Shown here: positions 2,078-2,388 of the stretch, one piece after another
Layout of the letters: each line of letters opens with the position of its first letter
Position numbering within the stretch: the first letter of the stretch is position 1
NCBI GenBank assembly: GCA_964510585.1
Contig: CAZECW010000104.1
Coordinates: 1-9,556 of the forward strand
Reading direction: 5' to 3'
From: an uncultured archaeon
GTDB taxonomy: Archaea > Asgardarchaeota > Jordiarchaeia > Jordiarchaeales > Jordiarchaeaceae
DNA length: 9,556 nucleotides
The notes under the pieces: generated by a model
What the model was told of the DNA's origin: nothing
The model's input: the letters and a program-made list of their open reading frames with translations, nothing else
Database searches by the model: none
Position numbers and translations under genes: made by a program

Positions 2078-2388
2078 GGACCGGTGGCCTAGCAGGATTT
2101 CCGTACAGACCTGAAAGGGCGCAGGCCATATGTTTAGTAAAAACTCCCAGATTATCGGCTTATTGCTGGATGACGTGATTTTGACTCGTCTCCGCATCCT
2201 GTTACTCATAATTTCCACATAATGCTGTTAAAAAAGAGGATGGGAAATCGGGTGCTTCCAATCTGTCACCACAACGAGTTCACACATCTAGGAGTTTATA
2301 CTAAACATATGGGCGCAGGCCTCCTAAGCCTGATGTCGCGCGTTCGAAACTGTCGAAACTAAAAACAGCGAAGATCGCGCCCGGTCCG
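2078..2388 (+). tRNA. tRNA-Arg(CCT) with three introns: 20a/21 (2099-2115, 17 nt), 29/30 (2125-2318, 194 nt), 59/60 (2349-2374, 26 nt); CCA not encoded
   Basis: The spliced product is a full cloverleaf: GGACCGG TG GCCT AGCAGGATA GGGC G CAGGC CTCCTAA GCCTG ATGTC GCGCG TTCGAAT CGCGC CCGGTCC G. BHB central helices are CAGG/CCTG, GCGC/GCGC and TTCG/CGAA, each with 3-nt bulges. Cutting after bulge nt 2 restores the cloverleaf. Anticodon at 2323-2325. Confidence 0.93.
2125..2318 (+). other. 194-nt BHB intron at tRNA position 29/30 with a long terminal stem
   Basis: 2126-2139 pairs perfectly with 2299-2312 (14 bp), 2141-2147 with 2291-2297 (7 bp) and 2149-2152 with 2286-2289 (4 bp). Bulges AGG at 2123-2125 and 2317-2319. 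Exon helix AGG 2116-2118 / CCT 2320-2322. Confidence 0.88.

Follow-up and report, generated by a model that had tools for sequence, protein, structure and literature searches.

A miniature transposon as the likely source of a tRNA intron in a Jordarchaeia genome

The tRNA genes of Freyarchaeia/Jordarchaeia and Atabeyarchaeia are heavily interrupted (PMC11291895; 10.64898/2026.10.13.758758). An October 2026 preprint tested tRNA-to-tRNA copying, hallmark genes of mobile elements at distances up to 5 kb, a set of 18 published elements, and reverse transcription as routes by which these introns might arrive; no route was found, and intron arrival was called 'the central open problem' (10.64898/2026.10.13.758758). 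The subject of this study is a 194-nt insert in the tRNA-Arg(CCT) gene of an uncultured archaeon of the family Jordiarchaeaceae (Asgardarchaeota). It lies in a stretch of 9,556 nt, positions 1–9,556 of contig CAZECW010000104.1 (assembly GCA_964510585.1), which is referred to below as the window. The insert is, with near certainty, a recent insertion of a miniature inverted-repeat transposable element (MITE) accompanied by a 7-bp target-site duplication (TSD). Its best reading is most likely that of a transposon-born intron of the bulge–helix–bulge (BHB) type, with splicing predicted from the geometry of the junctions. The locus belongs to the lineage of the tRNAs already described and shares with them multiple introns per gene, many gains on terminal branches and a preference for BHB-competent sites. 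In the preprint, introns were not compared with intergenic repeats, whereas here the donor family and the mechanism are both readable.

Non-canonical introns of Thermoproteales have been explained by 'intron transposition' (Fujishima et al. 2010, PMC4090602), the related copies being, as that account is summarized, other tRNA introns; a 2014 review calls the mechanism unknown (PMC4090602). The present case is alike in the lineage-specific gain of a non-canonical BHB with both flanking helices (hBHBh'), in a two-subunit EndA endonuclease, in the presence of related sequences at several loci and in a gain thought to occur at the DNA level. It is unlike in its donors, which are intergenic transposon copies with terminal inverted repeats (TIRs) and TSDs, and in that the TSD supplies the central helix and the bulges. 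In length, too, the insert far exceeds the 17–40-nt introns that surround it. In the model proposed for Caldiarchaeum, a 1.8-kb element of the integrase type and att-like tRNA repeats are followed by later homologous recombination (Sugahara et al. 2012, PMC3293823). That model likewise places a mobile DNA element behind a recent gain, seen as presence or absence between close genomes; a single insertion of the cut-and-paste type with a 7-bp TSD, however, suffices here.

Archaeal MITEs are represented by the SM1–SM4 elements of Sulfolobus, reportedly described by Redder et al. in 2001. The family treated here resembles archaeal and bacterial MITEs in being small and non-coding, in its TIRs and fixed TSD length, and in its dispersed copies, foldback structure and subfamilies. 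It differs in that a tRNA gene holds one copy and a protein gene two, and in that the junctions of these copies make up a splicing motif. In the literature, no archaeal MITE was found reported as a BHB intron, and no TSD was found reported to supply a BHB. Among eukaryotes, Huff et al. in 2016 and Gozashti et al. in 2022 are said to have described Introners, spliceosomal introns born from DNA transposons. There, too, a MITE-like transposon in a gene is removed from the RNA, the TSD helps to form the splice signals and the message is restored; the geometry by which TSD and termini supply such signals holds at the tRNA gene and at a shortened copy with the TSD CCGGAAT in G005, one of five congeners (G001–G005) compared below. 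Unlike Introners, the archaeal inserts would depend on a protein endonuclease that reads RNA shape, not on a spliceosome, and three genic copies stand against thousands. A BHB intron in the cbf5 pre-mRNA of Crenarchaeota was reportedly documented by Watanabe in 2002 and Yokobori in 2009. As in cbf5, the BHB inserts in the ahcY gene of G005, together with a genus-wide ahcY intron of 27–30 nt, need removal for a full-length protein. The gene is a different one, and of the three inserts in ahcY two can be recognized as transposon copies whose sites stand empty in the sister genomes. Each ingredient is already known: MITEs, non-canonical BHB introns, cbf5 mRNA introns and a heavy load of tRNA introns.

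The insert and its transposon family

The window's own genome (G000) is a metagenome-assembled genome (MAG) of 3.78 Mb in 217 contigs, 96% complete. Its tRNA-Arg(CCT) gene occupies positions 2078–2388 of the plus strand and carries three inserts. In this interrupted form the gene is called neither by ARAGORN, which reports zero tRNAs in the window, nor by Rfam, whose sole tRNA in the window lies at 8826–8920. After in-silico excision of the three inserts, ARAGORN calls tRNA-Arg(cct), and orthologues of the gene are present in all five congeners. The predicted mature tRNA has 74 nt and is assembled from 2078–2098, 2116–2124, 2319–2348 and 2375–2388. The longest insert, at tRNA position 29/30, is predicted from a direct reading of the sequence to be excised at a BHB as plus-strand positions 2125–2318. 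It consists of 1 nt of the 5' bulge, a MITE copy of 187 bp (2126–2312, no strand assigned; nhmmer 122 bits, covariance model R1 140 bits) and 6 nt of the second TSD copy. An earlier note on this DNA had described a 194-nt insert at 29/30, closed by a BHB and a stem with 25 of 27 positions paired and containing interior helices at 2175–2178/2280–2283, 2184–2189/2274–2279 and 2195–2200/2237–2242; coordinates and pairings are borne out by the sequence.

The ends of the element are inverted repeats on the plus strand, the left at 2126–2152 (CCATATGTTTAGTAAAAACTCC...) and the right at 2286–2312 (...GGAGTTTATACTAAACATATGG). They form the two strands of the inner BHB helix, 5' and 3' respectively, in which 25 of the 27 positions are paired (93% over 27 nt). 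Immediately outside stand two plus-strand copies of GCGCAGG, at 2119–2125 (tRNA positions 24–30) and at 2313–2319, identical at 7/7 positions. With the adjoining bases, both junctions form an exact direct repeat, GGGCGCAGGCC, at 2117–2127 and 2311–2321.

A census of the family in G000, made by a word search followed by an nhmmer profile, gives 32 loci with the profile, about 20 of them full length (179–188 bp). One further copy (G000:C167:11190-11376) is 94% identical to the insert; its surroundings are A-rich and intergenic, and it is not part of a tRNA. The termini CCATATGTTYA.../...TRAACATATGG are conserved in all full copies of the family, which measure 179–189 bp. Interiors diverge widely between subfamilies, only the termini and the hairpin apex being kept, and matches to the family model occur on either strand. 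In the congeners, the terminal 11-mer is counted 52 times in G003, 41 times in G004 and 14 times in G001, against 0–3 for a control word.

Perfect 7/7 TSDs of unrelated sequence flank at least 29 different copies, and others match at 6/7; by chance a 7/7 match is expected in 1 of 16,384 cases per copy. Examples from G000 are ATTACAT (contig C143), TTGAAGC (C181), ATATAGA (C212), GCAGCAA (C65), TAATTTT (C49) and AAAAACA (C167). At G000:C124:1315-1701 a MITE (1376–1560) is nested within another copy whose own outer TSD, ATAAAAA, is intact, an arrangement that appears to indicate successive waves of activity. TIRs, a TSD of fixed length, small size and many dispersed copies together identify the element as a MITE. 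One copy in G004 (C155:21832-22020, equal to L035:5832-6020) has a GC-rich TSD, CGCGGGG/CGCGGGA, of which CGCG is palindromic; the region around it lacks a long open reading frame (ORF). Two segments of about 250 nt in G000 (C35:8121-8379 and C76:5871-6131) have short TIRs and exact 7-nt repeats, CATGGTT and GGCCCAC respectively, and may belong to other element families with 7-bp TSDs.

The family is narrowly distributed. When each prokaryotic species was represented by one genome, a scan recovered it only in MAGs of Candidatus Jordarchaeia and Freyarchaeota, and its covariance model finds it in one genus only among 151 Asgard genomes from 52 genera. Bacterial matches to the pattern of paired ends (Campylobacter, Kangiella and others) fail the family model and were treated as chance. 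Two family members came out of a search for the element in public metagenomes: the C172 locus of G000, and a copy that lacks a TSD. Apart from the tRNA-Arg insert, every copy examined in G000, G001, G003 and G004, about 75 in all, is intergenic. For G001, G003 and G004 the count is 0 genic copies of about 55 (32 full copies retrieved in addition, and 25 that the scan of the collection had given); for G000 it is one genic copy, that in tRNA-Arg, among about 20 of full length.

The site is empty elsewhere in the genus. In each of the five congeners the orthologous tRNA-Arg(CCT) follows the same protein gene and lacks the 194 nt. Their empty-site sequence is ...CTGAAAGGGCGCAG / GCCTCCTAAGCCTG..., in which the slash marks the junction; GCGCAGG occurs there once and in G000 twice. 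Removal of the 194 nt regenerates exactly the empty site of all five, ...AAAGGGCGCAG / GCCTCCTAAG..., and the G000 tRNA agrees with the closest congeners at every mature position. On this comparison of sequences the gain is recent and specific to the lineage of G000. The earlier note had suggested the remnant of a mobile intron. The mobile origin stands. Mobility at the level of RNA does not: the element derives from a DNA transposon with TIRs and a 7-bp TSD, and its copies are mostly intergenic and without a BHB.

Junction geometry and a predicted splicing route

The BHB is defined as a 4-nt helix separating two 3-nt bulges (PMC5829648). At position 29/30 the motif is present in its strict hBHBh' form, with bulges, central helix and both flanking helices. 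The central helix pairs GCGC at 2119–2122 with GCGC at 2313–2316, the latter belonging to the 3' TSD copy, and the bulges are AGG at 2123–2125 and AGG at 2317–2319. The outer helix pairs AGG (2116–2118, plus strand) with CCT (2320–2322, plus strand; tRNA positions 31–33), as read from the sequence, and its 5' strand is retained in the BHB-constrained fold. What the earlier note had called a perfect symmetric BHB is the target-site duplication.

The predicted route runs as follows. (i) A non-autonomous MITE of about 187 bp, with TIRs of about 25 bp, recently entered the sole tRNA-Arg(CCT) gene at the target GCGCAGG. (ii) The transcript would then have the layout N1-4 N5-7 (TIR ... TIR) N1-4 N5-7. 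(iii) The palindromic N1-4 (GCGC) of the two TSD copies would pair to give the 4-bp helix, N5-7 (AGG) of each copy would stay unpaired on opposite strands and so give the two 3-nt bulges, and pairing of the MITE's inverted repeats would give the inner helix. Only the outer helix, here AGG/CCU, would depend on the neighbouring target. Because the length of a 7-bp TSD is that of a 4-bp helix and a 3-nt bulge together, such an insert would be spliceable on landing, and splicing would restore the original RNA. (iv) EndA would cut both AGG bulges, and RtcB would join the exons and circularize the 194-nt intron, with a predicted circular junction ...CATATGGGCGCAG / GCCATATGTTTAG..., also given as ...ACATATGGGCGCAG / GCCATATGTTTAG.... 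Since one element and one TSD copy are removed together, splicing would reverse the insertion in RNA and yield the ancestral tRNA; removal of 194 nt in any cutting register gives the pre-insertion sequence.

Geometry also bears on an unlikely alternative, that the MITE simply killed tRNA-Arg(CCT), the BHB being a coincidence and AGG codons being read by tRNA-Arg(UCU). Palindromic first halves do arise by chance in intergenic copies, such as ATAT (C212) and TGCA (L101), and N1-4 is palindromic in 2 of 28 other perfect TSDs, near the 1/16 expected. A palindromic TSD combined with a 3-bp outer helix, however, is estimated here for only about 0.4% of random insertions, and none of the roughly 75 other copies is genic. 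Among the copies of G000, G001, G003 and G004, the single genic one is the one with a complete BHB, a pattern expected if only spliceable insertions survive.

As oriented, the insert contains A5 (2139–2143) and A6 (2231–2236) and no T run longer than four; the reverse orientation would give U5 and U6. These are likely archaeal terminators, so that orientation may also have decided the survival of the insert. An antisense family copy in ahcY of G005 carries a U5, contrary to this idea.

The other two inserts of the gene are short. Plus-strand positions 2099–2115 hold a D-loop intron of 17 nt (central helix CAGG/CCTG, bulges ATT and AAA), and 2349–2374 a T-loop intron of 26 nt (central helix TTCG/CGAA, bulges AAA and GAT), the removal of which would leave the T-loop TTCGAAT; the boundaries of both were set by manual reading of the BHB. 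Both are older and are present in all five congeners (L013–L017). Their central helices are not palindromic and they show no repeat signature, and the D-loop intron is not MITE-derived. The T-loop intron (CTGTCGAAACTAAAAACAGCGAAGA) resembles an insert at the same position, about 8670–8697 (CTGTCAAAACGTAAATAGACAGCGAAT), in the tRNA at 8565–8710, and the 3' half of tRNA-Arg also matched this tRNA in congeners at 80% identity. Related introns thus seem, from their sequences, to occupy the same position in different tRNAs.

Family copies in the ahcY gene

The congener G005, a complete genome of 3.58 Mb from the same genus, is nearly free of the family: the terminal word has a count of 4, the control word one of 3, and two elements are found with the model. 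Both lie inside its only ahcY (adenosylhomocysteinase) gene, 625 bp apart, and both insertion positions are empty in G000–G004. The first is an internally deleted copy of 49 bp (L009:2303-2365, contig G005:C1, in a minus-strand gene). Its TSD is perfect, CCGGAAT in the coding direction and ATTCCGG on the plus strand, and the CCGG is a palindrome. This copy may represent a stage on the way from a full MITE to a short BHB intron. The second, of 184 bp, is 73% identical to the tRNA copy and antisense relative to it. Its central helix is CCAG...CTGG, its bulges are TGA and TAA, and its local minimum-energy fold is a textbook hBHBh'.

Excision at the BHBs of G005 ahcY removes 56 and 191 nt, together with the genus-wide BHB intron, here of 29 nt. 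The spliced gene is a 446-aa ORF, colinear with the 446-aa protein of G000 at 86.5% identity and with a dN/dS of 0.06, and excision restores the conserved motifs EETTTGI/VRL and GHPSE/VMDMSF, the slash marking the junction. The spliced mRNA would have the junctions ...CCCCAGTG / AGGTTATGG... and ...ACCGGAA / TTGTTCGG.... Strong constraint on ahcY implies that it is translated in full, and the transposon-derived inserts must therefore leave the mRNA.

The third ahcY insert is short and occurs in all six genomes (G000:C4, about 20565–20594, or L051, about 766–795; orthologues in L052–L055 and L009). It lies between ...NDTPTKWE and FDNLWGTGQS, contains a stop or a frameshift, and measures 30, 29, 30, 30, 27 and 29 nt. 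Its BHB has the central helix TGGG/CCCA and the bulges AAA/AAT, and its inner helix is kept through changes (CATAAAC/GTTTAAG versus CGTAAAC/GTTTGCG). From these features it looks like another conserved intron of the tRNA type in a protein gene.

Use of the tRNA gene and rival readings

Several lines of evidence argue for continued use of tRNA-Arg(CCT). AGG makes up 28% of Arg codons in long ORFs of G000. The earlier note had pointed out that an intact copy elsewhere in the genome, together with a lack of spliced reads, would make this a disrupted gene; neither blastn nor an anticodon-arm scan found a second tRNA-Arg(CCT) in G000, so that the idea of a killed gene has to contend with a single-copy tRNA in a 96%-complete assembly. 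It also has to contend with the same family, bounded by BHBs, in an ahcY gene on which selection clearly acts. No tRNA-Arg(TCT) whose anticodon arm is uninterrupted turned up in a simple scan of G000, and that gene probably has an anticodon-arm intron of its own.

The enzymes that splicing would need are encoded. G000 has two EndA paralogues (PF01974; G000:C157:27039-27287 and G000:C126:19921-20181) and a single RtcB gene (PF01139; G000:C58:3702-5036). Asgard EndA is reported to belong to the (alpha-beta)2 class with a broad-specificity loop (PMC5829648). The RtcB gene is a full-length Pfam match with one in-frame TGA, which could be an mRNA intron, a selenocysteine (Sec) codon or an error; use of Sec has been reported for the lineage (PMC11291895). 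Taking together the geometry, the survivorship, the single copy of the gene and the precedent of ahcY, we infer that the 194 nt are probably removed as a BHB intron and that tRNA-Arg(CCT) is still functional, its precursor being cleaved and ligated in vivo.

Several points weigh against this reading. The canonical BHB lies above the minimum-energy fold, by 8.3 kcal/mol at 37 C and by 2.0 kcal/mol at 75 C, because a cloverleaf-like fold competes; this also favours a dead gene. Decoding of AGG by tRNA-Arg(UCU) is possible and could make tRNA-Arg(CCT) dispensable. The insertion is recent and lineage-specific, so the intact exons say little about selection since, and a dead gene would show no decay yet. 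Of the two ahcY copies, that of 49 bp has a weak outer helix and a bulge of 2–3 nt. That of 184 bp lacks a direct-repeat TSD (CCAGTGA versus CTGGTAA), so that its central helix requires three later intronic substitutions or a different history. The filled junction between tRNA and MITE has no match in public metagenome contigs. Finally, no long element with family TIRs and a TSD was found in G000, whether as end pairs up to 8 kb apart or from unpaired ends.

The search for an autonomous partner extended further. Two candidate pairs of ends, with a spacing of 2.5 kb in G003 and 3.0 kb in G004, turned out not to belong together: they were ends from separate copies or a match that arose by chance within an ORF. 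Viral contigs gave no match. MAG assemblies often lose copies of insertion sequences. For the MITE we infer a transposase of the DDE type.

A second alternative holds that the insert is a functional, circularized and structured non-coding RNA, comparable to the C/D guide carried by tRNA-Trp introns, the dispersed copies being its gene family. BHB introns are circularized on excision, and the whole precursor folds into a strongly stable rod, with a z of -5.67 relative to shuffled sequences. A helix is kept through two paired changes that separate the copies at C104 and C167, GTGA/TCAC becoming GCGG/C(C)GC. The rod-like fold follows by construction, because a foldback MITE gives it. The insert has no Rfam match even at E<=10, and 7-bp TSDs with inverted termini are marks of transposition, not of gene duplication. 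Interiors differ widely between subfamilies, and the interior is conserved only as that of a transposon family. The family occurs in both orientations relative to its host genes, the 184-bp ahcY copy being transcribed antisense to the tRNA copy, and is confined to the one genus. The alternative is very improbable; the earlier note's stable circular RNA with its own function, like any dedicated function of the excised RNA, is unsupported. That the insert arose as an artefact of assembly, or that a minority allele was wrongly merged into the consensus of the MAG, is scarcely credible: the MAG has 217 contigs, family repeats often stand at contig ends in related MAGs and the filled junction is unmatched, but a chimeric join would not give an exact 7-bp duplication around complete inverted termini, as in the other copies with perfect TSDs, with flanks that are two halves of one gene in the order and context of five congeners.

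Across the whole of G000, the signature of a TSD-born BHB intron (a 7-nt direct repeat, palindromic in N1-4, beside an inverted repeat) was found 9 times, against 8 in a mirror control, so no claim is made that the TSD route explains the introns here generally. Genic family copies total three, one in G000 and two in G005. In a general form of the model, an insertion would be spliceable whenever the first four target bases self-pair, which would hold for 1 in 16 targets with Watson–Crick pairs and about 1 in 7 with G-U allowed. Surviving insertions would then shrink by internal deletion towards introns of 20–40 nt. That transposons with 7-bp TSDs generate BHB introns in Asgard archaea generally, and explain a substantial part of the gains in Jordarchaeia/Freyarchaeia, is a doubtful proposition at present.

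Such inserts have a practical consequence. The tRNA-Arg(CCT) gene escapes both ARAGORN and Rfam, and single-copy genes such as ahcY take on the look of pseudogenes. For the biology of the lineage, the tRNA-Arg locus is an intron gain caught early, in which donor family, insertion signature and empty sites are all readable. The rule of four paired and three bulged bases makes the open question of the origin of BHB introns directly testable. By analogy, the locus may be regarded as an archaeal counterpart of transposon-born spliceosomal introns, in the prokaryotes closest to eukaryotes.

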